Assembly: GCA_017964105.1 (NCBI GenBank)
Contig: JAGCSP010000003.1
Coordinates: 1 to 31,020, forward strand
From: Clostridia bacterium
GTDB lineage: Bacteria; Bacillota; Clostridia; Christensenellales; UBA1242
Direction of reading: 5' to 3'
DNA: 31,020 nt
Under the pieces are notes generated by a model, which was not told where the DNA came from, searched no databases, and saw nothing but the letters and a program-made list of their open reading frames with translations. The position numbers were made by a program, and so were the translations under genes. Shown here in pieces: positions 6,695 through 21,262 of the stretch; position 1 is the first letter of the stretch; each line of letters starts with the position of its first letter.

Positions 6695-6866
6695 GTTTTT
6701 CCTCCTTATATTTTGTTACTATTATTTTGTATCACTAGTACATTTATTATGCTGGTAAATATTTCTATGTATATATTTAGTATATAAAAAAGTTTATAAA
6801 AACACTTGATTTGTATGTAAGTGTATGTTATTACATAGTGTAAACATTTTTAGGAGATATAGTTTT

Positions 6867-7817
6867 ATGTGGGATATTTTGCTAGATGCATTAGTAGATT
6901 CCTTAAAGTTACTACCAATATTACTTGGTGTATATATCATCATTGAGTTAATAGAAGGGAAAACGTCAGGCAGATTAAAACATAATAAATATTTAAAGAA
7001 TGCATATGCACCTTTGATAGGTAGTGCAGTGGGCATTGTACCACAATGTGGTTTTAGTGTAATCGCTACAGATTTGTATACAAAAAAAGTGTTATCTGTG
7101 GGTACACTTCTTGCTGTATATATTGCAACTAGTGATGAAGCATTGCCAATAATGATAGCAAATCCAGGTAGTTATAAATATTTGTTACCAATGCTACTCA
7201 TCAAGTTTTTACTTGCACTAATTGTGGGATATGCTGCATATTTTATCACTCGTGGCAGAAAAGCCAAAAGTGTGTATGACGAAACACGCGTTGCAAAAAG
7301 TGGATATGTGGGTGCAACTCAACTACAACTAAAAGATATGCAGGTGGAATATGCGTATGTTGCTGCAGATATATATATGGACGAAGAACCAGACAGGGGT
7401 TGCTGTGGACATGATATTGAAACAAACAAATGGAAGCAATATTTACTTCATCCATTAATTCATAGCTTTAAAATATTTGTATATATTTTAATTGTGAATA
7501 TTGTGCTTGGATTTGTGATGCACTATGCAGAAAATGCAGTAACTGAATTTTTAAATTCAGCATATTATGCTCAGCCATTTATTGCTGCACTAGTTGGACT
7601 AATTCCAAATTGTGCATCTAGTGTAATTCTTACAGAACTATTCGTAGGCGGTGCAATTTCATTTGGTGCATGTATGGCAGGGCTAATTGTGAATGCGGGC
7701 ATTGCGCTTGCAGTACTTGTGAAAGACAACAAGAATAAATTAGATACAATTACAATAATTAGTAGTTTGTATTTAATTGGTAGCATTACAGGCCTTATTA
7801 TGAGTTTTATTTGGTAA
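6867..7817 (+). CDS. Putative manganese/metal transporter (ArsP_2-like permease)
   Basis: Start moved to the ATG at 6867 (AGGAG at 6852-6856). Duplicated motifs GIVPQCGFSV / GLIPNCASSV and ATSDEA. Central loop DEEPDRGCCGHD. Confidence 0.78.
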   Translation: MWDILLDALVDSLKLLPILLGVYIIIELIEGKTSGRLKHNKYLKNAYAPLIGSAVGIVPQCGFSVIATDLYTKKVLSVGTLLAVYIATSDEALPIMIANPGSYKYLLPMLLIKFLLALIVGYAAYFITRGRKAKSVYDETRVAKSGYVGATQLQLKDMQVEYAYVAADIYMDEEPDRGCCGHDIETNKWKQYLLHPLIHSFKIFVYILIVNIVLGFVMHYAENAVTEFLNSAYYAQPFIAALVGLIPNCASSVILTELFVGGAISFGACMAGLIVNAGIALAVLVKDNKNKLDTITIISSLYLIGSITGLIMSFIW

Positions 7818-7827
7818 GGTGGTGCGT

Positions 7828-8379
7828 ATGACAAAGAAAAAATTGTTGTTGCATAGTTGCTGTGGTCCATGTAGTAGTGGGGTGATTGAGGGGTTACTTG
7901 ATGAGTTTGATATGACAGTGTATTACTACAACCCAAATATTTATCCAAGAGAAGAATTTGATAAGCGTGCAAACGAACAACTAAAATACTTGCAAATTAT
8001 GAACCTTCCTTGTGTGGTGGGCGAGTATGATGACAAAGCATACTATACGGCAGTGAAAGGTTTAGAAAATGAGCCAGAGGGTGGCAAACGTTGTGCAGAG
8101 TGTTTTAAGCTTAGGTTGCTTGCCACTGCAAAGTATGCCAAAGAACATGGTTTTGATATATTTACAACAACTATGAGTGTGAGTCCACACAAAGATTTTG
8201 AACTACTAAATGAAATTGGGAAAGCAGTAAGTGAAGAAGTGGGCATAGATTACTTGTGGGCGAACTTTAAGAAAAAAGATGGATATCTAAAGAGTATTCG
8301 TAACAGTCAAAAGTATAATTTGTATCGTCAAAACTATTGTGGATGTGTATATTCACTTAATTCACGAGTGGAACATTAA
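7828..8379 (+). CDS. queH: Epoxyqueuosine reductase QueH
   Basis: LLLHSCCGPCS, YYYNPNIYP.EEF.KR, RCAEC..LRL, FTTTMSVSPHK, YRQNYCGC. ATG at 7828. Confidence 0.93.
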   Translation: MTKKKLLLHSCCGPCSSGVIEGLLDEFDMTVYYYNPNIYPREEFDKRANEQLKYLQIMNLPCVVGEYDDKAYYTAVKGLENEPEGGKRCAECFKLRLLATAKYAKEHGFDIFTTTMSVSPHKDFELLNEIGKAVSEEVGIDYLWANFKKKDGYLKSIRNSQKYNLYRQNYCGCVYSLNSRVEH

Positions 8380-8407
8380 AAAGACACTGAAATCGGGTGT
8401 CTTTTTT
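8379..8407 (+). terminator. Intrinsic terminator after queH
   Basis: AAAAGACACT...GGTGTCTTTTTT hairpin with U-tract. Confidence 0.7.
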
Positions 8408-8458
8408 GTTTGCTTTTTTGTGATATATGGTATAATATATAACTATAATAAATAATAT

Positions 8459-8534
8459 GGGCGATTAACTCAGCTGGTAGAGTGTCTCTTTGACGTGGAG
8501 GAAGTCACAGGTTCGAGTCCTGTATCGCCCACCA
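8459..8534 (+). tRNA. tRNA-Val(GAC)
   Basis: 76-nt cloverleaf. Acceptor GGGCGAT/ATCGCCC, D-stem ACTC/GAGT, anticodon GAC at 8492-8494, T-loop TTCGAGT, encoded CCA. Confidence 0.95.
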
Positions 8535-8549
8535 ACTAATGTGGAGTAT

Positions 8550-8625
8550 GGGATCATAGCTCAGTTGGTAGAGCGTTTGAATGGCATTCAAAAGGTCAGG
8601 AGTTCGAGACTCCTTGGCTCCACCA
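8550..8625 (+). tRNA. tRNA-Ala(GGC)
   Basis: 76-nt cloverleaf. Anticodon GGC at 8583-8585, G3:U70 and A73 alanine identity elements, encoded CCA. Acceptor stem has an A4xC69 mismatch. Confidence 0.93.
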
Positions 8626-8626
8626 A

Positions 8627-8671
8627 AATAAATCTAAACCCAATGTATTGAGTTTAGATTTATTATTTTTT
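8627..8671 (+). terminator. 18-bp inverted repeat (1 mismatch) with U-tract after the tRNA pair
   Basis: AATAAATCTAAACCCAAT (8627-8644) / ATTGAGTTTAGATTTATT (8647-8664), then ATTTTTT. Confidence 0.7.
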
Positions 8672-8787
8672 GCCCCTGATTTTATATAAAAAAGCATTTA
8701 AAACTAAAAAATTTTTAAAAATAAATGGCTATATGTAGGTGTTTTATGTTGGTTTATGTAAAATAATGAAAAAGTTGTAAAAAATTA

Positions 8788-8817
8788 TTGACAAATGATA
8801 TATCTATTTGATATTAT
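8788..8817 (+). promoter_or_regulatory. Sigma70-type promoter (extended -10) driving an ORF-free transcript
   Basis: TTGACA 8788-8793, TGaTATTAT 8809-8817 (18-nt spacer), A-tract-rich upstream region. Confidence 0.65.
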
Positions 8818-8823
8818 TATTGA

Positions 8824-9154
8824 ACATACATTAATTTGTATGTATCGGTTTACCGCTATGGTAAGTGGCGAGGATACTAATACTCGTGTGTGACCTACCA
8901 TCACTTAACACTATTAACCGATAGGCACCCCTTAAAGCTTGCACAGTCAGTACATTGTTTTTGAAAGTTTGATGTACTTATAAAATCTGAGCCTTCGTGG
9001 TAGTAAATAGGGTTGATAATGCTAATTACATTATTATTCTACGCAGCCAACTGATATCATTTTAGTTATTGACATTTGGTGATCATGTAATGGTTTATAT
9101 AGCGTAACAAACTTTCTTTTTTTGTGTAATTTAACACCCGCAAGGGTGTTTTTT
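8824..9154 (+). ncRNA. Candidate ~330-nt structured ncRNA; 3' ~180 nt is 6S RNA-like
   Basis: Own promoter and terminator and no credible ORF. Long-range helices: GAAAGTTTG 8963-8971 / CAAACTTTC 9108-9116; TGAGCC 8988-8993 / GGTTTA 9092-9097; 9012-9025 / 9062-9073. Separate 5' domain closed by TATCGGTT / AACCGATA. Folded by eye only. Confidence 0.55.
9133..9154 (+). terminator. Intrinsic terminator
   Basis: AACACCC-GCAA-GGGTGTT followed by a T-tract. Confidence 0.85.
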
Positions 9155-9173
9155 GTTTTTGTACTTAGAATAC

Positions 9174-9222
9174 TTGACAATATGAGTGAATATTCATATA
9201 CTATATGAGTAAACATTCATAT
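9174..9222 (+). promoter_or_regulatory. Promoter with two tandem ArsR/SmtB (CzrA-type) operators
   Basis: TTGACA 9174-9179, 17 nt, TATACT 9197-9202. Two ATATGA-N8-TCATAT palindromes at 9180-9199 and 9203-9222. Confidence 0.85.
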
Positions 9223-9235
9223 TGGAGAATATAAA

Positions 9236-9535
9236 ATGAAAAATATTCCTAGTGATAGAGATACTGACAACGTAATAGTAATATTGAAGATGCTTGCAGA
9301 TAAAACAAGATTAAAAATAGTGTATTCACTGATGTCTGGGGCAAAGTGTGTGAGTGAGATTGTGGCAGAAGTTGGCGAGAGCCAATCTGCAATTAGTCAT
9401 CAACTTGCAACAATGAAAGTAAGTAACTTAGTAAAGAGTGAAAGAGCAGGCAATAAAATAATATATAGCGTGGCAGATGAACATGTAAACAAAGTTGTAA
9501 AACTTTGCCTTGCGCATGCAAAGGAGCTAGAGTAA
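9236..9535 (+). CDS. ArsR/SmtB family metal-sensing repressor (alpha5-site, Zn-type)
   Basis: HTH motif SQSAISHQL. C-terminal DEHVNKVVKLCLAHAKE matches the DxHx10Hx2E alpha5 metal site of SmtB. Confidence 0.93.
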   Translation: MKNIPSDRDTDNVIVILKMLADKTRLKIVYSLMSGAKCVSEIVAEVGESQSAISHQLATMKVSNLVKSERAGNKIIYSVADEHVNKVVKLCLAHAKELE

Positions 9536-11673
9536 TGGACAAAAAGACATTTGACATAATTGACCTTGATTGCGCTGCATGTAGTGTAAAGATAGAAAAA
9601 GCAATTAATGGTTTTGACGACATTGATGAGTGTGTGCTAGATTTTATTGGCAAAAAATTATATGTTACACCTGCAAGAGAATTTGAAAGCGACGCTGCGC
9701 TTATTGAATGGCTAGAAGATATTGTACACATATTTGAATCAGAAGTACATTTGGTGCTTGCTGATGAAGAAACTAAACAAGAAAAGAAGAAAACAAATTT
9801 CTTTAAATCCCAAGCTTTTGAGTGGACCAAAATTGGTGTTGGTTTTGTGACTATTGTTTTATTGCTTACCCTAAACCTTAATTTTTGGATTCAACTTGGC
9901 GTAGGTCTTGCAGTATATTTGCTTGTTAGTTATGATGTAATTATAAAAACTTTTAAAAAGATAACAAAAGGCAACTTTTTAGATGAAAATTTCTTGATGA
10001 CTGTTGCCACCATCGGCGCACTTGCATTGCAAGAGTTTAGTGAAGCGCTAGGTGTCATGGTGCTATACAAAATTGGTGAGATATTCCAAGATTATGCATT
10101 GCAAAAAAGTAGAAAAAATATTATTGACTTAATTAACTTAAAGGCAGAACATGCAACATTACTTAGAGATGGCGAAGAGCATACTTGCAAACCAGAGAAA
10201 TTGCAAGTTGGCGATATAATCTTAATCAAAAAAGGTGAGCGTGTGCCTGTAAACTGTGCCGTTATTGGAGGTAGCACTTATGTAAACACAGTTGCACTTA
10301 CTGGCGAAACCAAATTAAAAACAGTATATCCAGATGATGTGCTCCTAGGAGGATACATTGTGGATGGGGCGCCTGTGCGTGCACGCGTGATTGCTGAATA
10401 CAAGAATAGTGCAGTGGCACGTATTTTGGACCTTGTGGAACATGCAACTAGCAAAAAAGCAAGAGCAGAAAAATTTATTAGTAAATTTGCTCGTGTGTAT
10501 ACACCAGTAGTAATGGGGCTTGCACTTGTTACAGCATTTATTCCACCAATTTTTGTGGGTAATATTAGTACTTGGATATATAGGGCATTATCATTCTTAG
10601 TAATTTCATGTCCATGTGCAATAGTGATATCTGTTCCGTTGACTTATTTTGGCGGCATAGGTATTAGTGCAAAAAATGGATTACTTATAAAAGGTGCAAG
10701 CACACTTGAAACTCTTGCATCAGTAGATACAGTAGTTGTAGATAAAACAGGAACACTTACAAAAGGTGTGTTTGAAGTGCAAGAAGTGTACAACACAGAT
10801 AGTTGCACGCGTGATAACTTAATTAAGTTTATGTGTTATGCAGAAAGTGGTAGTAACCACCCAATTGCAAAAAGCGTGATGAAACTATATTCAGGCAAAA
10901 TATTCCAAAGCAAAATATTTGAATACGACGAAGTAATTGGCCTTGGTATTATGGCAGTAATAGAAGGCAAACAAGTACTTTGTGGCAATGAAAAATTATT
11001 AAAGAAAAATAATATAAAGTTTAAAGCATGTGACAAGCCTGGCGTTGTTGTATATCTAGCAATAAATGGCGAATATGCAGGCTATGTGCTTATTTCAGAC
11101 GCATTAAAAGAAAATGTGAAATATGATATTGAAACTATTAAATCAGTTGGCGTAAAACACATAGTAATGCTAACAGGTGACACTGACGATATTGCAAGTA
11201 GTGTTTCTAAAGATCTTGGAATTAATGAGTATTATGCTAATTTATTGCCAGAAAACAAAGTGGAAATATTACAAAACATATTAAAAGACGGCAAGGGCAA
11301 AGTTGCATATGTTGGTGATGGTATTAATGATGCGCCTGTGCTTATGCTTAGTGACGTGGGTATTGCAATGGGTAAATTTGGTCAAGATGTTGCTATTGAA
11401 GCAGGTGATGTAGTGCTATTAAACGATACATTATCTAGCATCACTAGTGCAATTAAGATTGCAAAACGCACACGCCTTGTGAGTGTGGTAAATGTTGTGT
11501 TTGCCCTAGGTGTTAAGGTGGCCATCATGATAATGGGTGTATGTGGTATATCTAGTCTTTGGTGGGCAGTTATTGGCGATGTGGGTGTATCCATTGTGGC
11601 AATACTTAACGCAATGACAATGTTACTATATAAACCAAATAAACAACAAATACAAAAAGACACTAGCAAATAG
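9535..11673 (+). CDS. cadA: Heavy-metal P1B-2-type ATPase (Zn/Cd/Pb exporter, CadA/ZntA-like)
   Basis: Start at ATG 9535 overlapping the arsR stop (TAATG). CAAC metal-binding domain, TGE, CPC, DKTGTLT, HP and GDGINDAP motifs, plus K and DVG in the last two TMs. Confidence 0.93.
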   Translation: MDKKTFDIIDLDCAACSVKIEKAINGFDDIDECVLDFIGKKLYVTPAREFESDAALIEWLEDIVHIFESEVHLVLADEETKQEKKKTNFFKSQAFEWTKIGVGFVTIVLLLTLNLNFWIQLGVGLAVYLLVSYDVIIKTFKKITKGNFLDENFLMTVATIGALALQEFSEALGVMVLYKIGEIFQDYALQKSRKNIIDLINLKAEHATLLRDGEEHTCKPEKLQVGDIILIKKGERVPVNCAVIGGSTYVNTVALTGETKLKTVYPDDVLLGGYIVDGAPVRARVIAEYKNSAVARILDLVEHATSKKARAEKFISKFARVYTPVVMGLALVTAFIPPIFVGNISTWIYRALSFLVISCPCAIVISVPLTYFGGIGISAKNGLLIKGASTLETLASVDTVVVDKTGTLTKGVFEVQEVYNTDSCTRDNLIKFMCYAESGSNHPIAKSVMKLYSGKIFQSKIFEYDEVIGLGIMAVIEGKQVLCGNEKLLKKNNIKFKACDKPGVVVYLAINGEYAGYVLISDALKENVKYDIETIKSVGVKHIVMLTGDTDDIASSVSKDLGINEYYANLLPENKVEILQNILKDGKGKVAYVGDGINDAPVLMLSDVGIAMGKFGQDVAIEAGDVVLLNDTLSSITSAIKIAKRTRLVSVVNVVFALGVKVAIMIMGVCGISSLWWAVIGDVGVSIVAILNAMTMLLYKPNKQQIQKDTSK

Positions 11674-11683
11674 TGCCTTTTTT
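11654..11683 (+). terminator. Intrinsic terminator after the ATPase
   Basis: AAAAAGACACTA-GCAAA-TAGTGCCTTTTTT, overlapping the stop codon. Confidence 0.7.
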
Positions 11684-11687
11684 GTTG

Positions 11688-11716
11688 TTGACAAGATTGA
11701 GTCGTAGTGGTATTAT
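11688..11716 (+). promoter_or_regulatory. Sigma70-type promoter with extended -10, upstream of the leader peptide
   Basis: TTGACA 11688-11693, 17 nt, TGgTATTAT (-10 at 11711-11716). The predicted +1 falls at or next to the ATG at 11723. Confidence 0.8.
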
Positions 11717-11722
11717 TTAGGT

Positions 11723-11758
11723 ATGAAAAACATTAAATCCCAACAACAACAATACTAA
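11723..11758 (+). CDS. Putative leaderless attenuator leader peptide MKNIKSQQQQY
   Basis: ATG AAA AAC ATT AAA TCC CAA CAA CAA CAA TAC TAA. The ATG is 6 nt after the -10 box, and the Gln codons overlap segment 1 of the attenuator. Confidence 0.72.
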   Translation: MKNIKSQQQQY

Positions 11759-11858
11759 GCAAGTTGTGTATAAGAGTCCTTATGCATAACATTTTTGTTG
11801 TTTTAAGGATGATATAAATAAATTACTTTGTCCTTGAAACATGTTTCAAGGATTTTTT
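11737..11858 (+). promoter_or_regulatory. Transcription attenuator (1:2 pause hairpin, 2:3 antiterminator, 3:4 terminator)
   Basis: 1:2 = ATCC 11737-11740 / GGAT 11807-11810 plus AACAACAA / TTGTTGTT 11795-11802, enclosing a 12-bp hairpin (11763-11790). 2:3 = TGTTTTAAGGA 11799-11809 / TCCTTGAAACA 11831-11841 (11 bp, one G:U). 3:4 = 11831-11840 / 11843-11852 followed by TTTTTT. Confidence 0.78.
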
Positions 11859-11908
11859 GTTTGTAAAATATAATTATTTTGATAAAATAATTTATGTAGG
11901 AGTAAGAT

Positions 11909-13912
11909 ATGAAAAGTTTTAATGATGTAAAGCTAGAAAATATGATTGCACATCGTCCAAAATTTCCAAAGCGTGCAATGATTACATCTGGTATGCCAAA
12001 TGGCAATAAGTATTTGCATATTGGCCATGCAATGATGTGGGTGCACACTGATATTTTTGCACGTTTTATGCGTGATAGAATTGGGTATGACAATGTGTTA
12101 CATGTGTCTGGCACAGATAGCTTTGGAAGTCCTGTGGAAGAAGGATATCGCAAAGCTATAGAGGCTGGCGAGTTTAAGGGTACAATAAAAGAGTTTGCTT
12201 TATCCAAAAGACAATTTCAAAAAGATACATTTGAGAAATATGAAATTGGTATAAATTTGTATTCTGGTTCTTGCACAGATGAGGCAGTGCCTTTGCATGA
12301 AGAGACAGGTGCATGGATTTTTAATACTTTGCGTGAAAATGGTTTTATGAATAAACTTTCCACATATCAATTTTATGACGAAAAGTTAGGAATATTTCTT
12401 AATGGTAGGCAAGTAATTGGTAAGTGTCCAATAGATGGATGCACAGGTGAAAAAGGATATGCAGATGAATGTGACTTAGGTCATCAATATATGCCTAGCC
12501 AATTGATTGACCCTGTGAGTGTGTTGTCTGGTGAAAAACCAGTTTTGAAAAAAATTGACAACTGGTACTTTGACCTTCAAAATCACACAGATTTATTAAA
12601 AGATTGGGTAGAATATCTAAAAAAGAATACAAAAACACGTGAAAGCGTGATAAAAACAATTGAAGAGTTTTTAAAGAAACCAGAAATATATATCAAAAAA
12701 GAATACGAAAATGAATTTGAAAATGTAAAATTTTTGCTTCCAACTTTTGAATATAAAGATGATACAAAAAGTAGTTTTACCATTGTATTTGACAAGCTTG
12801 AAGATAGAGAAGTGGCATGCGAAATGCTTACAGATGCGGGCATTAGATATCGTACTGGCAAAACACTTGTACCATTTAGACTTACCGGCAACTGCGAGTG
12901 GGGTTTGAAATGTCCAAAAGAAGCGGGCGATAACTTGACATTTTGGGTGTGGCCAGAAAGTCTTTGGGCACCTATTACATTTACAAAGCAATGGTTAATA
13001 TCACAAGGTAAACCAAAAGAAGATTGGCGCAAATATTGGTGTGACAAAGATTGCCAAGTATATCAATTTATTGGTGAAGATAATATTTATTTCTATGGCC
13101 CTGCGCAAACTGCAATGTGGTTCTGCATGCAAGGAAAAAATCCTAGTGTAAATATACCAGATGGAAATTTAACAATTCCTCAAATTGTCAGTGATAAGCA
13201 CTTGTTGTTCTTAGGTAAAAAAGCAGGCAGCAGCAGTGCAGTAAAAGCACCACTTGCGCATGAATTATTGAATTATTACACTCCTGAGCAATTGCGTATG
13301 CACTTTATGGGTATGAATGTAATAAATAACCCAGCAAGCATATTCCCAAAACCATTAAACCCAGATGCTGATCCAAATGAAGTGGATCCTGTGGTACGAG
13401 AAGGCAATTTGCTTACAAATGTATTTAATAGAGTGCTTAGAAATCTTTGCTACACATGGCAAAAAGATTTTGATGGATTTATGCCATATGGCACACCAGA
13501 TGAAGATATAATTAAAGAAGGTGAACTTAGTTTACTAAAATATGAAAAACTTATGAGCGAGCAAAAACTTCATATGGTGAGCTATGAACTTGACACATAT
13601 ATTAGAAATATCAATAAGTATTGGGCAAAATATTCAGTGGAATTTGATAAAGACAAAGAGAAAGAAAAACAAGTAATAATCAATACACTTCACATGGTGC
13701 GTGTGGCAATGTTAGAATTACACCCAGTGGCACCTGTTGGTGTGGAAAATTTGGCTAAATTTATGGGAATTAGTAGTGAAGTGTTTAAATGGGAAAATGA
13801 AGACAAACTTATTTATGACTTTATTGAAAATCCAAAGCATCACAAACCAACATTCTTAAATCCAAGAGAAGATTTCTTTACCAAGCATCCAAGTCAATTT
13901 GAACAAGAATAA
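11909..13912 (+). CDS. Divergent class Ia aminoacyl-tRNA synthetase of the MetRS fold; amino-acid specificity uncertain
   Basis: HIGH motif, GTD..GSP, zinc knuckle CPIDGC...EC..GH, VW and FIGEDN motifs, KMSKS equivalent KKAGSSS, and N.FNR in the anticodon-binding helix bundle. AGGAG SD at 11898-11902. Confidence 0.85.
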   Translation: MKSFNDVKLENMIAHRPKFPKRAMITSGMPNGNKYLHIGHAMMWVHTDIFARFMRDRIGYDNVLHVSGTDSFGSPVEEGYRKAIEAGEFKGTIKEFALSKRQFQKDTFEKYEIGINLYSGSCTDEAVPLHEETGAWIFNTLRENGFMNKLSTYQFYDEKLGIFLNGRQVIGKCPIDGCTGEKGYADECDLGHQYMPSQLIDPVSVLSGEKPVLKKIDNWYFDLQNHTDLLKDWVEYLKKNTKTRESVIKTIEEFLKKPEIYIKKEYENEFENVKFLLPTFEYKDDTKSSFTIVFDKLEDREVACEMLTDAGIRYRTGKTLVPFRLTGNCEWGLKCPKEAGDNLTFWVWPESLWAPITFTKQWLISQGKPKEDWRKYWCDKDCQVYQFIGEDNIYFYGPAQTAMWFCMQGKNPSVNIPDGNLTIPQIVSDKHLLFLGKKAGSSSAVKAPLAHELLNYYTPEQLRMHFMGMNVINNPASIFPKPLNPDADPNEVDPVVREGNLLTNVFNRVLRNLCYTWQKDFDGFMPYGTPDEDIIKEGELSLLKYEKLMSEQKLHMVSYELDTYIRNINKYWAKYSVEFDKDKEKEKQVIINTLHMVRVAMLELHPVAPVGVENLAKFMGISSEVFKWENEDKLIYDFIENPKHHKPTFLNPREDFFTKHPSQFEQE

Positions 13913-13915
13913 TTT

Positions 13916-13942
13916 AAGACACATTTTATATGTGTCTTTTTT
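13916..13942 (+). terminator. Intrinsic terminator after the synthetase gene
   Basis: AAGACACAT-TTTAT-ATGTGTCTT followed by a T-tract. Confidence 0.8.
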
Positions 13943-14019
13943 GTGCTGTGTAAAATCATTTTGATAAGTTTAGTTTATGTGGTAAGATAGTACGTAGAGT
14001 TTATAACTTAAGGTGTAAA

Positions 14020-14757
14020 ATGAGACTAATAGATGAAATACAGTGCGGAAACATTATTTGTGGCGTAGCAAAAAATAAGGTAGACATTGAAGCTGCCGAA
14101 AAATTACGCTATGATATGCTTCTTATGGATTTTAATACAGAAAATACAAATACTAATGCTACAGATAAAAGTGAATATGATGATATCTGTGAGCATTTGA
14201 TTGCAATAGATACCGACACAAACGAAGTGGTTGGTACTTATAGAGTGCTAGCTAGCAACAAATTGCCAAAAGGTAAAATGTGGGTAACTGAGCATGAGTT
14301 TGATATTTCAAATTTAAGAAATTGTGGCGAAGGTATTGTGGAATTATCTAGGGCAGTAGTGCATACTGATTATCGTAATGGTTCAGTTATCAAAATGCTT
14401 TGGAAGGCATTATTTAACTACGCAGTAAAATATAATATTAGGTACTTGTTTGGTACAGCAAGTTATCATGGGGTAGATAAATCAAAGTACACCAACTCAT
14501 TTGCTTGGTTAAATGATAAATATTTAGTTGATGATGCTTTATCTTGCTCACCAATTGAACACACTGTTGCATTTGGCAATAGTTATGATTTGGAAAAGGC
14601 AAAAGATGAAACACCATCGCTTATCAAAGGATATCTTGCTATGGGCTCCAAGGTAACCAAAGGCGCATACATTGACTACGAGTTTGGTAGCATTGATGTG
14701 CTTACCATATTAGATTTGAAAAATGTAAGTAGGGTATTTGAGAGAATTATAAAATGA
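14020..14757 (+). CDS. OlsB-like GNAT N-acyltransferase (Acetyltransf_5; ornithine/amino-lipid synthase-like)
   Basis: LRY, D.YD..CEHL, VGTYR, EFD, ELSRAVVH..YR.G, LW, LFGTAS, P.LIKGYL..G and D.EFG..DV follow the OlsB pattern. Confidence 0.8.
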   Translation: MRLIDEIQCGNIICGVAKNKVDIEAAEKLRYDMLLMDFNTENTNTNATDKSEYDDICEHLIAIDTDTNEVVGTYRVLASNKLPKGKMWVTEHEFDISNLRNCGEGIVELSRAVVHTDYRNGSVIKMLWKALFNYAVKYNIRYLFGTASYHGVDKSKYTNSFAWLNDKYLVDDALSCSPIEHTVAFGNSYDLEKAKDETPSLIKGYLAMGSKVTKGAYIDYEFGSIDVLTILDLKNVSRVFERIIK

Positions 14758-16673
14758 AATACAACAAAAAGAAATTATACTTAATAATTCCAATAGTGCT
14801 ATTTTTGGGATTGCTTGCAATATTCATAAAAGATATTATTCAAATGCTCCCACTAATTAAAAACGCAGATGAAGAAAGTGTTCGTGCAGCGCTTAGCACA
14901 CTTGGGCCAAAAGGTGCAATTGTGATAGGTTGCATTGTGGCTGTGCAATTACTCATAGTATTTATGCCATGCGAATTTATGGAAATTATGAGTGGTGTGG
15001 CATATGGTCCATGGTGGGGCACACTAATTTGCCTAACTGGAGTAATAGTTGGTGCAAGCTTGATATATGCACTAATTAACGTGTTTAATGTCAAATTAGA
15101 GGTACTTTTTGCCAAAAGCAAAAGTTATGAAACAATTTCAAAATTGTCACGAAGTACAAAATCAATAGGTAAATTATTACTTATACTATTTTTCTTGCCT
15201 GCAATTCCACTTGGTGTAATATGTTATTTTGGTTCCACCACAAACCTAAAATATCATTGGTACATTCTAATAACTGCAATTGGTGCATTGCCAAGTATTG
15301 TTATTGATACTGTTCTTGGTCATGTGTTTGTGGCAGCAATTGGCAAGTACTTTTGGTGGATACTAATAGCAGTTGTGTTATTTGCAGTGATTGCAATGTG
15401 GCTTGTAAAACTCTACACAACAAAGAAAATGAATATTGCACTATATGGCACAAAAAACCCAACGGTAGATATGGTGCTAGATAATCATAAACCAAGCTCA
15501 CCAAAGGTAACACATATTTGGTTCTTAACAAGAGTGGCAAGACACCTAAAACGCAAATATAATGTAAAAGTAAATAATGAAGAAACAAAAAATCTAAAAG
15601 ATCCTTTTATTGTACTTAGTCCACATGGGTGTTGGGCAGATTTCTTGCTAACATTCCTTGCAATCAAACCTTACAAAACGCACATCATGATGAATGCATA
15701 TTACTTGTACAATAAAAAGACTCAGGGAATACTTCTTGATACAGGCGTAATTCCTAAAAAAATGTTTGCTAATGACTTAAAATCAATCAAAGATTGTATG
15801 GCTGTAGTAAAAAATGGTGAAAGCATTCTTATGATGCCAGAAGCACGACTAAGTATTGATGGAGCAAATCAACCATTTGCACATGGCCTTGGCAAACTTA
15901 TAAAGAAATTAAACATACCAGTAATTACAATTGAATCTCATGGCGCATACTTATCTATGGCAAAGTGGGTGGAAACAAAACGCAAAGGTGCAATTGAAAT
16001 TACCACACATTTAACCTTGACCCCAGAAAAGATACAAGAACTAAGTGCAGACGAAATTGATGATATTTGCGCAAAAGCACTTGCATTTAATGATTTTGAA
16101 TGGGTAAAAGATTCGCCATATGTGTTTAAGGGCAAAAACATGCTAGAAGGCGCAGAAAACCTAATATACAAGTGTCCAAAATGTGGTCATGAATATACTC
16201 TAATTGCAGATAAAAACACAATTACATGTACACACTGCGGTTTGCAAGTGAGTATGAATGGAAAGTATCAATTTATCAATCCATATGGCAATATTCACAA
16301 CTTGCAAGATTGGTATAAGTACCAAAGAGTAGAAGCACAAAAGGTATATGATAGTGGCAACTTCAAATTGGAAACAGAAGTGGTTTTGAAAACATATGAC
16401 GACTATGGTAAAGGTATAGTGCCAGTTGGCGAAGGAAAGTGCGTGCTAGATAAAGATGGCTTGCGTTATGATGGCACATTCAAAGGCGAAGAGCATCATT
16501 TAGCTATACCTGCCCACGCAATGCAAGCATTGCCATTTGGTTGCGGTGAAGATTTTGAAACGTATTGGGATAATATCTTTTATTATTTTGTTCCAAAAGA
16601 AAATAAAGCACAATGCGTGCAATGGGGAATATATAGCGACATTATGATACAAAATGCTAAAAAAGATGAATAG
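14754..16673 (+). CDS. Fusion protein: VTT/DedA (TVP38-like) membrane domain + PlsC-type acyltransferase + zinc ribbon
   Basis: N-terminal VTT pattern (P.E...I.SG..YGPWWG...G...GA.L.Y). HX4D motif (HGCWAD) and PEARLS block. CPKC...CTHC zinc ribbon. Confidence 0.8.
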   Translation: MKYNKKKLYLIIPIVLFLGLLAIFIKDIIQMLPLIKNADEESVRAALSTLGPKGAIVIGCIVAVQLLIVFMPCEFMEIMSGVAYGPWWGTLICLTGVIVGASLIYALINVFNVKLEVLFAKSKSYETISKLSRSTKSIGKLLLILFFLPAIPLGVICYFGSTTNLKYHWYILITAIGALPSIVIDTVLGHVFVAAIGKYFWWILIAVVLFAVIAMWLVKLYTTKKMNIALYGTKNPTVDMVLDNHKPSSPKVTHIWFLTRVARHLKRKYNVKVNNEETKNLKDPFIVLSPHGCWADFLLTFLAIKPYKTHIMMNAYYLYNKKTQGILLDTGVIPKKMFANDLKSIKDCMAVVKNGESILMMPEARLSIDGANQPFAHGLGKLIKKLNIPVITIESHGAYLSMAKWVETKRKGAIEITTHLTLTPEKIQELSADEIDDICAKALAFNDFEWVKDSPYVFKGKNMLEGAENLIYKCPKCGHEYTLIADKNTITCTHCGLQVSMNGKYQFINPYGNIHNLQDWYKYQRVEAQKVYDSGNFKLETEVVLKTYDDYGKGIVPVGEGKCVLDKDGLRYDGTFKGEEHHLAIPAHAMQALPFGCGEDFETYWDNIFYYFVPKENKAQCVQWGIYSDIMIQNAKKDE

Positions 16674-17142: not shown

Positions 17143-19392
17143 ATGGATAATTTTGTAAATTGGATAATGAGTCACAATACACTTTTGTATAGCATATTCT
17201 TTGGAATTATGCTTATTTTTGCTTGTGTGTTTATTGTGAGATATTACGTAACAAACAAAAGTAATTTGTCGGCAAAACAAATTGTGCCACTAGTAATTAC
17301 GCTTGTGCTATTTGCATATAGCTTCGAGCAAATTTCTTGGGGCCATTTTTACAAATTGCTTGGCTTCAATATGTTTACATTCTATTTCTTGCTAGCATTT
17401 TTGTATTACGACAAAATTAGCAAACGCAAAATTACAAATATTGCATTCTGGTTTTTGTTGCTATCATCCATTTTAACATTTATTCTTGGATTTATTCCAG
17501 TATTTGAACAATATTTCTGGTATGGGGCAGAACACAGATTTGCAGGCATTGTGGGTAATCCAAACACACTTCAATTTTGTGTGGCTGTTACTTTGGCTGC
17601 AACACTCACAATATTCTTTAAAGGTGGCATGGGCAGAGTGGAAATGTACTTTAAGTGCTTAACCCTTGCAGGCATTGGCCTACTCACCAAATCAAAAACC
17701 TTTATGGTGATATTTGTGTTACTACTACTTACATATCTAATTTTTGAATTCATTTACCATGCAAAAGTTGCTGCTATTGAGCTTGGCACAATACTAGTGG
17801 TATTTGGCGTGATATATCTCATTTGGGGTAGAGTAATTATAGATTCACTACTTTCTAGATTGTACCTTGACGACACCACATCATTTATCAATGGCATCAC
17901 ATCAGATAGATGGGAATTGTGGGGCAAGTACTTGGGTTCTTGGACAGAAGATACATGGGCACTACTATTTGGCCAAGGATTTAGTTCGCCAGACTTTATA
18001 TATGGTGGCACTCACAACGACTATATCTTTGTGCTATACAACCTTGGCATTATTGGTGGTGTGCTTGTGCTTGGTCTTGGCATATCATACATTGTGGCAT
18101 GCAAGGATAAATTCAAAAATTTCCGCATTTGGAACTTGGTGCCAGTAATTACAATAATTGCAATTTCTTGCACAGAGAATTTGCTAATTCGTGCATTCTC
18201 ACTGCTTAGTGTATTTTGCTTTATGTTCTTGCTTGATAGCGAGAATTACAAAAAGGTGTTTAAAAAATTAAGTGATAGCAAAGTAATGCTAATTTGCACA
18301 ACCGACAATATGATTTGGCAATTTTTATTGCCACATATCAAGGATATGCAAGACGCAGGTGCAGATGTGCATTTGGTTTGCCATAAAACGGGGTTCTGGT
18401 TTGACGAATTAAAAGATATGGGATTTACCATGCACAATATCAATATGAAACGCAATCCTGTAAATCTTACAAACATAATTGCATATTTCAAGTTGTGCAA
18501 GTTACAACGCAAAGAAAAATATGACCTTGTATATTGCCAGCAACCAGTTGGTGGAATGCTTGGCAGATTAGTTGGAGCAAGATTCCGCTTGCCAGTGATA
18601 TACACAGCACATGGATTATTCTTTTACAAGGGTAATAGTAAACTAAAAAATTTTGTGTATAGGTCTGCTGAACGCGTGCTTGCAAGTAGCACAGATGTAT
18701 TCATCACAATGAATGATGAAGATTATAATGCCACAATCAAGTGGCCACCAAAGTTTAAATACAAAATTCATGGCATTGGAATGAATCCAGATAAATATGA
18801 AAAAACAAAATTTATCAAAAATCAATTAAGACAACAGCTTGGCCTTAATGATGGAGATAGATTGGTGATATCTATTGGTGAATTTAGAGGCGTAAAAAAT
18901 TATCCAACCATGGCAAAAGTGATGCAAAAAGTTATGCAAAGTGAACCAGACGTAAAATGGTTAATTTGTGGTACTGGTGCAGATAAGCAAGACATAGAAA
19001 ATCTTGTAGCAGAGTTGGGAATAAAAGACAATGTGAAATTCCTAGGATATCGCAAAGACGTTGATAGAATTGTGCGCATTAGTGATATTATGCTTCACTC
19101 ATCATATCGTGAGGGGCTTACAATGAGTATTATGGAAGTAATGCATTTTGGTCTTCCGGTAGTAACCACAACTTCGCGTGGTAACAAAGATTTAATTGTG
19201 GATGGCGAGGGTGGATTTACTCTTGACCCATTTGATGTGGATGCGCAAAGCGAAGCAGTGATTAAGTTACTAAATAATCCAACGCTCAGAACAAAAATGG
19301 GCAACTTCAATAAACAAGAAGTAAAGAAATACTATTTAGATAATGTTCAAAGCGAACTAAAACAAATATATAAGGATTGTGATTTACTATGA
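17143..19392 (+). CDS. Fusion protein: O-antigen ligase/Wzy_C-like membrane domain + GT4 glycosyltransferase
   Basis: N-terminal ~365 aa is multi-TM with RFAGIVGNPN and HNDY. C-terminal GT-B/GT4 domain with SYREGL...IMEVM..GLPVV. Confidence 0.8.
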   Translation: MDNFVNWIMSHNTLLYSIFFGIMLIFACVFIVRYYVTNKSNLSAKQIVPLVITLVLFAYSFEQISWGHFYKLLGFNMFTFYFLLAFLYYDKISKRKITNIAFWFLLLSSILTFILGFIPVFEQYFWYGAEHRFAGIVGNPNTLQFCVAVTLAATLTIFFKGGMGRVEMYFKCLTLAGIGLLTKSKTFMVIFVLLLLTYLIFEFIYHAKVAAIELGTILVVFGVIYLIWGRVIIDSLLSRLYLDDTTSFINGITSDRWELWGKYLGSWTEDTWALLFGQGFSSPDFIYGGTHNDYIFVLYNLGIIGGVLVLGLGISYIVACKDKFKNFRIWNLVPVITIIAISCTENLLIRAFSLLSVFCFMFLLDSENYKKVFKKLSDSKVMLICTTDNMIWQFLLPHIKDMQDAGADVHLVCHKTGFWFDELKDMGFTMHNINMKRNPVNLTNIIAYFKLCKLQRKEKYDLVYCQQPVGGMLGRLVGARFRLPVIYTAHGLFFYKGNSKLKNFVYRSAERVLASSTDVFITMNDEDYNATIKWPPKFKYKIHGIGMNPDKYEKTKFIKNQLRQQLGLNDGDRLVISIGEFRGVKNYPTMAKVMQKVMQSEPDVKWLICGTGADKQDIENLVAELGIKDNVKFLGYRKDVDRIVRISDIMLHSSYREGLTMSIMEVMHFGLPVVTTTSRGNKDLIVDGEGGFTLDPFDVDAQSEAVIKLLNNPTLRTKMGNFNKQEVKKYYLDNVQSELKQIYKDCDLL

Positions 19393-20534
19393 TTATATAC
19401 TACTTATTATTTGTTATAATTTTGCTTTGTGGATTGTATTCCATTTATGTTAATACAAATGAATATGATAACACATACCATTCAAAAAGTGTTTTAAGAT
19501 TAGTATGTGACAAATTATTTAAGGATTATTTATTTGTCGTACTATTGTTAATTGTCTTTGGTGCATACAGAGGTTTTAGAGTTGGATTAGACAATCCAAT
19601 GTATCTTAGTTACTATCATGCACTTGAAGATAATTTTGCAGCAAACTGGTCACTATATGGATTTGAATTTGGTTATAGGGTAATCAATGCTTTTGCTTAT
19701 GGATTAAATATTGGTTATTTTGGTGTGCAACTTATTTGCACAACAATTATTGTATTGTCGTTTTATAGATTTATTAATACATTTTCACTAAATAAAACAA
19801 TTTCTTGGCTTTTGTTCTTGTGCCTTGGAATATATGCACAATCACTTTGTATAGTAAGGCAAATGCTTGCACTAAGTTTTGTTTTGCATGCAATCATAAG
19901 TTTATACAACAAAAAGTATTTTAGATATGTTATCTACACAATTATTGCTGTGTTATTTCACAAATCTGCGTTAATTACACTTGTGTATTTGCCACTAGCA
20001 TTTATACCTTTAAGTGAAATTAGTGTAGCAATATATACAGCTTGCGCAACACTTGTATCTGTTACATTTATTCCATTATTCAAGCTATTTGTAAAAATAT
20101 TTGATTCAAGGTATGCTTATTACATATTTGGTGACATTGGTGAATTTAATACACCTGTTAGTTTGCCAGATATGTTATTTACAATAGGTATGTTGGTACT
20201 ATTTATTGTTGTATTTCTATTTAAAGATAAATTATCAAAAACAGATCAACTAAACAATAACAAATTCTTAACATTATTTTTGTTTGTACCACTCATTAGA
20301 ATGTTTGGTGCATACATTCAATTTCCAACATTATCACAAAGAATTACACCTTATTTCTTCTTTTCAATAATTGTGATAGTACCATATTATTTAAAACTAA
20401 TTAAAGAAAAATATACCAAGTGGTATGTGCCCGCACTAGTTGTTACTATTGCCGGTGCGCTTGTGTACATGTACTTCTTGTACGCAGTAAAAGTAAGTTG
20501 TGGCGTTGTGCCATATAATTTTGAAATATTATAG
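19389..20534 (+). CDS. EpsG family polysaccharide polymerase (Wzy)
   Basis: R...GLDNPMY, EFGY, IVRQMLA and FHKSA motifs; ~10 hydrophobic segments. Confidence 0.85.
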   Translation: MIIYYLLFVIILLCGLYSIYVNTNEYDNTYHSKSVLRLVCDKLFKDYLFVVLLLIVFGAYRGFRVGLDNPMYLSYYHALEDNFAANWSLYGFEFGYRVINAFAYGLNIGYFGVQLICTTIIVLSFYRFINTFSLNKTISWLLFLCLGIYAQSLCIVRQMLALSFVLHAIISLYNKKYFRYVIYTIIAVLFHKSALITLVYLPLAFIPLSEISVAIYTACATLVSVTFIPLFKLFVKIFDSRYAYYIFGDIGEFNTPVSLPDMLFTIGMLVLFIVVFLFKDKLSKTDQLNNNKFLTLFLFVPLIRMFGAYIQFPTLSQRITPYFFFSIIVIVPYYLKLIKEKYTKWYVPALVVTIAGALVYMYFLYAVKVSCGVVPYNFEIL

Positions 20535-20542
20535 GAGAAAAA

Positions 20543-21262
20543 ATGATACCAAAGATTATTCACTACATTTGGCTAGGTAAAGGTGAAACACCGAAGGTGT
20601 TTGACAAGTGCCTTGCCTCATGGAAGAAATATTGCCCAGATTGGGAAATCAAGCGCTGGGATGAAAGTAATCTTAATATAGACTTGTGCCCATACGTACG
20701 CGAAGCATACGATGCACGCAAATTTGCATTTGCTTCTGACGTATTGCGCCTAGATGTGCTCAATCGCTTTGGTGGAGTATATTTAGATATAGATGTGGAA
20801 CTACTAAAACCCATTGACGAGTTTTTGGATGAGTACGCATTCACTGGCTTTGAAACAAGTGGCTTAATTGCGCCAGGACTAATTCTTGCATGCGAAAAAG
20901 AAAATTTGGATTTTGTAGCAATATTAAACAGTTACAAGTCTCGTCACTTTTTGGTGGACGGAGTGCAAGACACAAAAACCATTTGCCAAACATTTACAGA
21001 GTATTATGAGAAATTTGGTCTAAAAGCAGAGAATATAACTCAAAAAGTAAACAATTTTACTGTGTATGCTAGTGAATATTTTAGTCCATATGATGTAATA
21101 ACAAACAAAAAGAAAATAACATCTAAAACATATTCAATCCATTGGTATAATGCTAGTTGGTATACACCATGGCAAAAGTTTAAACGTGGTTGCAAAAAAT
21201 GCTTAAACTTTGTTTCATTTGGATTGTTTGGTAAAGTGTTACAAAAGGTAAGAAAGAAATAA
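20543..21262 (+). CDS. GT32 (Gly_transf_sug/OCH1-like) glycosyltransferase
   Basis: MIPKIIHYIW, FAFASD..R, GGVYLDIDVE (DxD) and YSIHW motifs. Confidence 0.9.
   Translation: MIPKIIHYIWLGKGETPKVFDKCLASWKKYCPDWEIKRWDESNLNIDLCPYVREAYDARKFAFASDVLRLDVLNRFGGVYLDIDVELLKPIDEFLDEYAFTGFETSGLIAPGLILACEKENLDFVAILNSYKSRHFLVDGVQDTKTICQTFTEYYEKFGLKAENITQKVNNFTVYASEYFSPYDVITNKKKITSKTYSIHWYNASWYTPWQKFKRGCKKCLNFVSFGLFGKVLQKVRKK

Follow-up and report, generated by a model that had tools for sequence, protein, structure and literature searches.

Why should a gene for a protein with the fold of methionyl-tRNA synthetase (MetRS) lie behind a short leader peptide with a run of glutamine codons? The question is raised by a 31,020-nt stretch of DNA from a Clostridia bacterium, here called the window, whose positions serve as coordinates throughout; MetX is the name coined here for the MetRS-fold protein. 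In amino-acid attenuators (trp, his, pheM/pheST), the repeated codon of the leader names the amino acid that is sensed. A sequence-only reading of the window had proposed that this class Ia protein may charge tRNA(Gln) or otherwise feed Gln-tRNA, and comparative genomics now lends support to that proposal. Two routes to Gln-tRNA(Gln) are known: glutaminyl-tRNA synthetase (GlnRS), and a glutamyl-tRNA synthetase of the non-discriminating kind (GluRS) followed by the amidotransferase GatCAB or GatDE. New synthetase families are rare, class I LysRS, PylRS and SepRS being cases in point.

The answer we favor is that MetX probably stands for a family derived from zinc-knuckle MetRS that has lost specificity for Met and tRNA-Met and charges tRNA-Gln with Gln. 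It also seems fairly likely that MetX forms a third route to Gln-tRNA(Gln), as a class Ia GlnRS whose origin from MetRS is separate from that of the GluRS-derived GlnRS, that many gut and rumen Clostridia have no other route, and that MetX is guarded by a Gln T-box and by a leaderless Gln-codon attenuator. MetX is proposed to supply Gln-tRNA(Gln) because its specificity residues are replaced beside an intact MetRS, because two sensors of tRNA-Gln precede it, and because it fills the gap left by GlnRS and GatCAB. Direct charging with Gln would be the simplest reading since many carriers of MetX have no amidotransferase. No published description of the family was found in searches of the full-text literature, whose coverage excludes subscription journals.

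A MetRS scaffold with replaced specificity residues

MetX matches the Pfam model tRNA-synt_1g with 207 bits and otherwise only MetRS-type models, falling below the MetRS equivalog cutoffs (225 versus 587 bits for NF001100 and 172 versus 336 for TIGR00398). It does not have the make-up of GlnRS, that is, TIGR00440/PF00749 with C-terminal barrels. Built with 66 family members, an AlphaFold2 model reaches a mean predicted local distance difference test score of 91, and its best PDB matches in Foldseek are the MetRS of E. coli and P. abyssi (E 1e-34 to 2e-30, ~20% identity). The three-dimensional fold of the model is that of MetRS. The landmarks are HIGH (residues 37–40), the zinc-knuckle region (173–192), WPESLWAP (348–355), Y396, which occupies the place of the MetRS His, and KAGSS (438–442). 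A helical anticodon-binding domain extends from ~494 to 640 and has no MetRS ‘PW’ motif.

Table 1. Specificity and catalytic motifs of canonical MetRS and of the MetX family
Motif	Canonical MetRS	MetX family
HIGH	HxGH	HxGH, invariant
Alpha-amino-binding Asp	present	kept (D70 in MetX)
N-terminal pocket motif	ALPYANG	GMPYGNK (window GMPNGNK)
Met-pocket loop	WFDAPIGY	WPESLWAPISF; 3-residue insert, Tyr to Phe
Second pocket motif	GKDNIVFH	GEDNIYFY; sulfur-contacting His to Tyr
KMSKS	KMSKS	KASSS (window KAGSS)
Anticodon motif	GNKY...PW	without PW

The altered specificity residues that the sequence-only reading had noticed are real and are conserved throughout the family (Table 1). When the positions of the E. 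coli Met pocket (W253, A256, P257, Y260, I297 and H301) are compared, W, A and P are kept, while the SLW insert and the changes of Y260 to F and H301 to Y are invariant in the 66 members. In the motif N-x-Y...P-W that reads the CAU anticodon, N569 and K570 are kept and PW lies in a gap of the MetX profile. The degenerate KMSKS is by itself no argument against MetRS-type catalysis, because the MetRS of P. abyssi reads KFSTS at this position and so also lacks the second Lys.

The family also has an insert of ~65 aa that carries a conserved basic motif, GIRYRTGKTLVPFR, and whose fold is ferredoxin-like (beta-alpha-beta-beta-alpha-beta). A fold search with the insert gave generic ferredoxin-like, ACT or PII matches only, with E of at least 0.03, and no specific relative in the PDB. 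The insert may take part in tRNA binding.

The MetX family is monophyletic in a maximum-likelihood tree (100/100 support), with a long stem. A small group in which KMSKS is retained forms its sister, and both stand apart from canonical MetRS. This sister clade (P0146, P0160, P0178, P0192 and L160:1484-3493; 28–34% identity to MetX) shares WPESL(I)AP and the His-to-Tyr change, and keeps an intact KMSKS and GMPYANG. One of its members is in a housekeeping context, adjoining an RluA-like pseudouridine synthase and Lgt. The clade may be another re-targeted MetRS-like synthetase.

MetX and GlnRS in complementary sets of genomes

The genome that holds the window (G000) is a 795-kb assembly with 34% GC and the standard code. 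Elsewhere in it lies a canonical MetRS (C38, 800 bits against the NF008900 cutoff of 598). MetX is thus not the only MetRS homolog of its genome; the sequence-only reading had named a lone MetRS homolog as refuting it, and none of the refuting observations that it listed has been made. There is one GluRS, the only PF00749 protein of the genome, and no GlnRS, GatA or GatB was found in this assembly, which is 87% complete. A separate canonical metG without glnS or gatAB, as the same reading had anticipated, is likewise seen in near-complete relatives: canonical metG scores above its cutoff in all 10 of the genomes with MetX and neither GlnRS nor GatB in which it was sought.

Two samples were used for the phyletic pattern, one of 41 genomes from the genus of the window and one an even draw of 300 genomes from the class Clostridia, these 300 being at least 90% complete apart from G000. 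In the genus, MetX is present in 27 genomes, none of which has glnS. Among the 14 others, 13 have glnS and the remaining one has GatB. Neither glnS nor GatB is found in 11 of the MetX genomes, seven of them 92–98% complete and one in 2 contigs. The class sample (Table 2) shows the same complementarity: glnS occurs in 2 of 33 carriers of MetX and in 194 of 267 non-carriers (31/33 and 73/267, respectively, are without GlnRS). Both glnS and GatB are missing from 10 of the 300 genomes, and nine of these ten carry MetX. Where GlnRS and GatCAB are both missing, MetX would be the only source of Gln-tRNA(Gln). The anti-correlation with glnS and gatAB that had been predicted for the family is therefore strong (0/27 versus 13/14 in the genus; 2/33 versus 194/267 in the class).

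Table 2. Genomes of the class sample by presence of MetX, GlnRS and GatB
MetX	GlnRS	GatB	Genomes
no	no	no	1
no	no	yes	72
no	yes	no	71
no	yes	yes	123
yes	no	no	9
yes	no	yes	22
yes	yes	no	1
yes	yes	yes	1

The pattern is not the result of one deep split, because MetX and glnS alternate inside at least four single genera (g1, g18, g42 and g87). In g18, with genomes of 0.8–1.0 Mb, two alternative charging sets are found (G100 and G185 versus G158, G211 and G331), one with GlnRS and GatB but no AsnRS and the other with MetX and AsnRS but no GatB. In this genus, the routes by which Gln and Asn are charged appear to have been swapped together. A need for Asn-tRNA was considered as the reason for GatB in MetX carriers; since nearly all of these carriers have AsnRS, it was rejected.

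Only two sampled genomes, G242 (L036) and G231 (L052), have MetX plus GlnRS. In G242, MetX contains an in-frame TGA and still has a Gln T-box upstream; it looks like a decaying redundant copy. One sampled genome, G310 (99% complete), has none of MetX, GlnRS and GatB. Among the Firmicute genomes available in 2008, every species without GlnRS had an amidotransferase (PMC2494555). The carriers of MetX include the cultured organisms Ruminococcus albus 8 and R. flavefaciens, so the prediction is directly testable.

Gln T-boxes upstream of MetX

A full T-box, defined as a match to RF00230 at or above the Rfam gathering score, lies directly upstream of MetX on the same strand at 10 loci of other Clostridia. 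RF00230 is absent from the window and from 11 orthologs of MetX in its genus. On the 3' side, the specifier loop reads GAA-CAG-G or GAA-CAG-U at L041, L100, L074 and L086, GAA-A-CAG-G at L050 and L051, GAA-A-CAA-G at L052, L103 and L121, and GAA-G-CAA-G at L036. Gln (CAA/CAG) is the sole amino acid that fits all 10 loops, and none of these T-boxes has an AUG specifier.

A fixed position of the specifier in the Rfam alignment could not be assumed, since one thrS T-box reads GAA-ACC and another GAA-A-ACC, a shift of one base. As the register is not fixed, the discriminator base was used to decide. The bulge of the MetX T-boxes is UGGC at eight loci and UGGU at two, whereas that of thrS is UGGA. 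The tRNA-Gln of G000, G123, G151 and G231 ends in G73-CCA, and the tRNA-Thr of these four genomes and of G278 ends in U73-CCA. The UGGC and UGGU bulges fit the G73 of tRNA-Gln, as read from the sequences. Because both the specifiers and the discriminator pairing fit tRNA-Gln, uncharged tRNA-Gln is predicted to be the inducer of MetX in the organisms that bear these T-boxes.

The MetX ortholog at L088 is preceded, around position 930, by the conserved T-box sequence GGTGGCAACACG, with no Rfam match at the gathering score; this may be an eleventh, divergent T-box. In an earlier survey, amidotransferase genes that stand in for GlnRS or AsnRS had no upstream T-box (PMC2494555).

A proposed Gln-codon attenuator in the window and at related loci

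In the window, a different device precedes the gene. Leader open reading frames (ORFs) with QQQ or QQQQ 1–4 codons before the stop precede MetX orthologs at eight loci, the window included (Table 3). The run of three or four CAA/CAG codons is the sole conserved part of the eight peptides. As such leaders recur at eight loci whose MetX proteins are 56–97% identical to each other, chance can, on this comparison, be ruled out as the origin of the Gln run. Downstream of each leader ORF the order is the same: first a hairpin, then a UUGUUG(C) segment, then a terminator.

Table 3. Leader peptides upstream of MetX, each followed directly by a stop codon
Locus	Peptide
Window (G000)	MKNIKSQQQQY
L013 (G007)	MTNIKSQQQY
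L138	MKNMIFQQQQY
L137	MKTLVILQQQW
L134	MNSILLQQQQNIIF
L139	MIRFLLQQQQNF
L055	MKINFKEFQQQS
L057	MSKFFNKVQQQR

The leader ATG of the window lies exactly 6 nt past the -10 box and has no Shine–Dalgarno sequence, so its mRNA is probably leaderless. The layout of the window (-35 box, 17 nt, -10 box, 6 nt, ATG) recurs at L138, L137, L055 and L057. Across the eight loci, the ATG is exactly 6 nt past the -10 box in six and a Shine–Dalgarno sequence is present in two, which suggests a leaderless start in six of the eight.

Segment 2, the U/G-rich stretch upstream of the terminator, is able to pair in two ways. In the window, UUGUUGUU (11795–11802) pairs with the CAA run, which is segment 1, and UUUUAAGGAUGAU (11801–11813) pairs with the 5' arm of the terminator to give the antiterminator. 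At L055 and L057, segment 2 (GUUGCUUG) is perfectly complementary both to the Gln codons and to CAAGCAAC in the 5' arm and loop of the terminator. The duplex energies of segment 2 beat those of its shuffles across the eight loci, with z from -1.1 to -4.7 for the 1:2 pairing and from -2.4 to -5.8 for the 2:3 pairing (-4.1 and -5.1, respectively, in the window). In prefix folds of the window leader, the helix between the CAA run and UUGUUGUU forms in the nascent transcript of 92–110 nt, and AAGG is buried too. When the first 40 nt are masked to mimic a stalled ribosome, a 13-bp antiterminator forms. A terminator thus stands between leader and gene with a mutually exclusive antiterminator, equilibrium folds being ambiguous in some loci, and the tandem Gln codons are conserved in the orthologous leaders. 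Rfam found only noise in the window leader, with no T-box, riboswitch or known RNA family.

These elements suggest the following scheme. Transcription would begin at or beside the ATG of the 11-codon leader ORF. When Gln-tRNA(Gln) is plentiful, the ribosome would pass the four CAA codons and depart, the CAA run (segment 1) would pair with UUGUUGUU...AAGG (segment 2), the terminator (11830–11859) would form and transcription would stop. When Gln-tRNA(Gln) is scarce, the ribosome would stall on the CAA run and leave segment 2 free to pair with the 5' arm of the terminator, and RNA polymerase would continue into MetX. The Gln-specific T-box would apply the same control logic in other Clostridia. 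Minimum free energy folds of the whole leaders show a clean switch between terminator and antiterminator at L137 only. Since the equilibrium folds are unclean at some loci, the switch would have to be kinetic. The stable hairpin that separates segment 1 from segment 2 may serve for pausing or as a spacer.

The leader has its limits within the genus: none was found at ten other genus orthologs, nor at four more located behind rpmB. The expectation that orthologs would show Gln-linked regulation is borne out by the eight Gln-run leaders and the 10 Gln T-boxes, although most MetX loci have neither, as will be seen below.

Weighing the explanations

Several observations weigh against MetX as a Gln-charging enzyme under tRNA-Gln control. 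About 100 of the ~125 MetX loci inspected have neither leader nor T-box. The codon register shifts by one base between T-boxes, five of the loops can be read as ACA (Thr), and the choice between Thr and Gln in these five is settled solely by the discriminator base. Equilibrium folds of the window leader favor the antiterminator even when no ribosome is present, and so the terminator outcome there would depend on folding kinetics. The tRNA-Gln(UUG) that reads the CAA codons of the leader is missing from the G000 assembly. G231 has an intact MetX, with its T-box, and an intact GlnRS. Many of the sampled genomes are metagenome-assembled genomes (MAGs), and that of the window has the incompleteness given above. 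The Fisher p of 5e-14 for the association with glnS overstates it, because related genomes are not independent. Finally, GatB is also present in 22 of the 31 genomes with MetX and no GlnRS, so that MetX is not always the sole conceivable route.

This last point bears on the possibility that MetX misacylates tRNA-Gln with Glu and that an amidotransferase then makes Gln-tRNA(Gln). The T-boxes and leaders show that tRNA-Gln is sensed and say nothing of the amino acid attached, and the GluRS2 of Helicobacter pylori is a precedent for attaching Glu to tRNA-Gln. A MetRS-like domain that activates Glu exists in PyrN (PDB 9L8V; PMC8664883). However, GatB is about equally frequent beside true GlnRS (123/194 genomes), a GluRS is already present in MetX genomes, and MetX occurs without GatB in nine genomes of the class sample and 11 of the genus, mostly 92–100% complete, where Glu-tRNA(Gln) would be a toxic dead end. 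We give this explanation a small chance. MetRS-like proteins are known in which Glu, Gly, Ser, Ala or Tyr is activated independently of tRNA (PMC8664883), which also allows MetX to be a tRNA-independent amino-acid ligase of the hydrazine-synthetase kind, or to have some other role in glutamine metabolism, with the GlnRS pattern as an effect of lineage. PyrN is among the structural matches of MetX, and the degenerate KMSKS could be taken in the same sense. But MetX keeps the helical anticodon-binding domain, its carriers have tiny genomes in which it sits in housekeeping contexts, and its alternation with GlnRS recurs within genera. The Lys/Orn N-hydroxylase (PF13434) expected of a PyrN-type system was not found in G000, where the neighbors of MetX are an ATPase and lipid acyltransferases; a cupin was not searched for. 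Such a ligase would, moreover, leave nine of the ten genomes that lack both known routes without a source of Gln-tRNA, and its chance seems to us slighter again.

The slimmest chance of all is that MetX is still a MetRS, a divergent second copy such as an inhibitor-resistant or stress isoform, whose regulation by Gln is incidental. Its fold and best sequence matches are those of MetRS, it retains HIGH and the Asp that binds the alpha-amino group, and a KMSKS without the second Lys has its parallel in P. abyssi. Set against these are the Met-pocket and anticodon motifs replaced family-wide, a canonical MetRS in every carrier tested, and 10 of 10 T-boxes that fit Gln, with matching discriminator pairing and no AUG. 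A second MetRS would also leave the complementarity with GlnRS and GatB unexplained. Direct charging of tRNA-Gln with Gln by MetX therefore remains the reading we prefer.

If it is true, a new synthetase family would be added beyond GlnRS and the GluRS plus GatCAB/GatDE routes, and the genomes annotated without any Gln-charging route would be accounted for. The class Ia scaffold would prove re-targetable, with a polar amide replacing a hydrophobic thioether and a YUG anticodon replacing CAU. The repertoire of attenuators would gain one that reads Gln codons, and this in Firmicutes. MetX would be relevant to genetic-code engineering, as a natural orthogonal-looking pair, to metabolic reconstruction of rumen and gut Clostridia, and to narrow-spectrum synthetase inhibitors.

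The locus and its neighbors

The promoter, Gln-codon leader, attenuator and MetRS-like gene that the sequence-only reading had described are all present (Table 4). The unit spans 11688–13912, with terminators found by the terminator scan at either end, and is monocistronic because a bidirectional terminator follows the gene. The promoter matches at 11 of 12 positions and is the top-scoring site within 11500–14100.

Table 4. Features of the MetX unit in the window
Feature	Position	Strand	Remarks and basis
Upstream terminator	11654..11682	.	U-runs flank hairpin on both sides; ends heavy-metal P-type ATPase gene (9505–11673); terminator scan, Pfam E1-E2_ATPase/HMA
Sigma-70-type promoter	11688..11716	+	TTGACA (11688–11693), 17 nt, TG-extended TATTAT (11711–11716)
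Leader ORF MKNIKSQQQQY	11723..11758	+	11 codons; orthologous leaders at seven other loci
Four tandem CAA (Gln) codons	11741..11752	+	attenuator segment 1; proposed ribosome stalling site
Stable 12-bp hairpin, then AUUUUUG	11763..11790	+	equivalents in L137, L138, L055, L057
Segment 2, U/G-rich	11791..11813	+	complements CAA run and terminator 5' arm; prefix folds, masked folds
Leader intrinsic terminator	11827..11859	+	10-bp stem 11830–11853 and U-run; folds, terminator scan
Shine–Dalgarno AGGAG of MetX	11898..11902	+	sequence
MetX	11909..13912	+	667 aa; MetRS-fold class Ia synthetase paralog, probable tRNA-Gln-charging enzyme
Family-specific insert (residues ~258–325)	12680..12883	+	gap versus MetRS structures, model secondary structure, alignment
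Bidirectional terminator 3' of MetX	13916..13938	.	terminator scan

ARAGORN finds 20 tRNA genes in G000, tRNA-Gln(CUG) among them. In relatives, tRNA-Gln(UUG) is part of a His-Gln-Lys cluster (L147, L148 and L149). G000 has three T-boxes, at thrS, pheS and one further gene. Because 29 of 357 long ORFs end in TGA, and because MetX and its neighbors are open under code 11, a recoding of TGA (code 4/25), suggested by a higher ORF coverage, was rejected. The DNA of the window is found in bovine and other gut metagenomes, and in no RNA sequencing run. The nearest named relatives of the MetX protein are from Clostridia and Christensenellales MAGs, and NCBI labels it ‘class I tRNA ligase family protein’ or, mistakenly, MetRS.

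Upstream of MetX lies a metal-resistance block (6825–11673) with an ArsP_2-like exporter, an ArsR-family repressor (9236–9535) and the heavy-metal P-type ATPase. A QueH epoxyqueuosine reductase is encoded at 7819–8379. The ATPase is also the upstream neighbor of MetX at L138, synteny being kept that far. Downstream (14020–16673), beyond the bidirectional terminator, lie two genes that share 4 nt. The first encodes an N-acyl amino acid synthase (FeeM/PF13444) of 245 aa, and the second a 639-aa protein in which a VTT/DedA-type domain is fused to a PlsC acyltransferase and a zinc ribbon. They form an OlsB/OlsA-like pair, which suggests aminolipid synthesis. A conserved operon context was considered and rejected, as the synthase and acyltransferase are not conserved beside MetX orthologs. 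Further on (17143–21262) is an exopolysaccharide-type cluster with a GT4 glycosyltransferase of 749 aa, a polymerase of the EpsG family and a DXD glycosyltransferase similar to the catalytic domain fold of TcdA/TcdB.

Comparison with known systems

The nearest relative in structure is zinc-knuckle MetRS (E. coli 1QQT, P. abyssi 1RQG), which shares with MetX the Rossmann core, the connective peptide (CP) with its zinc knuckle, and the helical anticodon-binding domain (TM-score 0.67–0.70 by query, 0.81–0.85 by target). MetX differs in its extra ferredoxin-like domain, in having no C-terminal Trbp111-like domain, and in being regulated by tRNA-Gln instead of tRNA-Met.

The nearest relative in proposed function is the class Ib GlnRS (glnS, TIGR00440), since both would form Gln-tRNA(Gln) directly. 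The two are mutually exclusive, occupy the same phyletic slot across Clostridia and have a similar co-occurrence with GatB, but their homology is limited to the class I core: GlnRS, with its beta-barrel anticodon-binding domains, goes back to GluRS, and MetX to MetRS. The class I and class II LysRS are likewise unrelated families that serve one amino acid in a complementary distribution. They are a precedent for MetX and GlnRS, with the difference that theirs is biochemically proven and MetX is a prediction. T-box control of class I LysRS is the subject of PMC2916919.

Re-targeting of the MetRS scaffold to another amino acid has been described for the MetRS-like domains of hydrazine synthetases (PyrN, Spb40 and Tri28): PyrN uses Glu, and homologs use Gly, Ser, Ala or Tyr (PMC8664883). 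PyrN matches the MetX model with E 2e-23. Unlike MetX, which is found alone in housekeeping contexts, these enzymes are independent of tRNA; their partners in biosynthetic clusters are a cupin domain and an N-hydroxylase.

With regard to regulation, the T-boxes of MetX are full-length members of the class found before aminoacyl-tRNA synthetase genes (RF00230), their specifier being Gln. The leader has the short tandem-codon ORF, the 1:2, 2:3 and 3:4 pairing and the intrinsic terminator before the gene that are seen in the trp, his and pheST/pheM attenuators, and E. coli pheST is a precedent for an attenuator that controls a synthetase gene. It differs from these in sensing Gln, in being apparently leaderless in six of eight loci, in the stable hairpin between segments 1 and 2, and in belonging to a Firmicute lineage that otherwise uses T-boxes. 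We know of no other Gln-codon attenuator.

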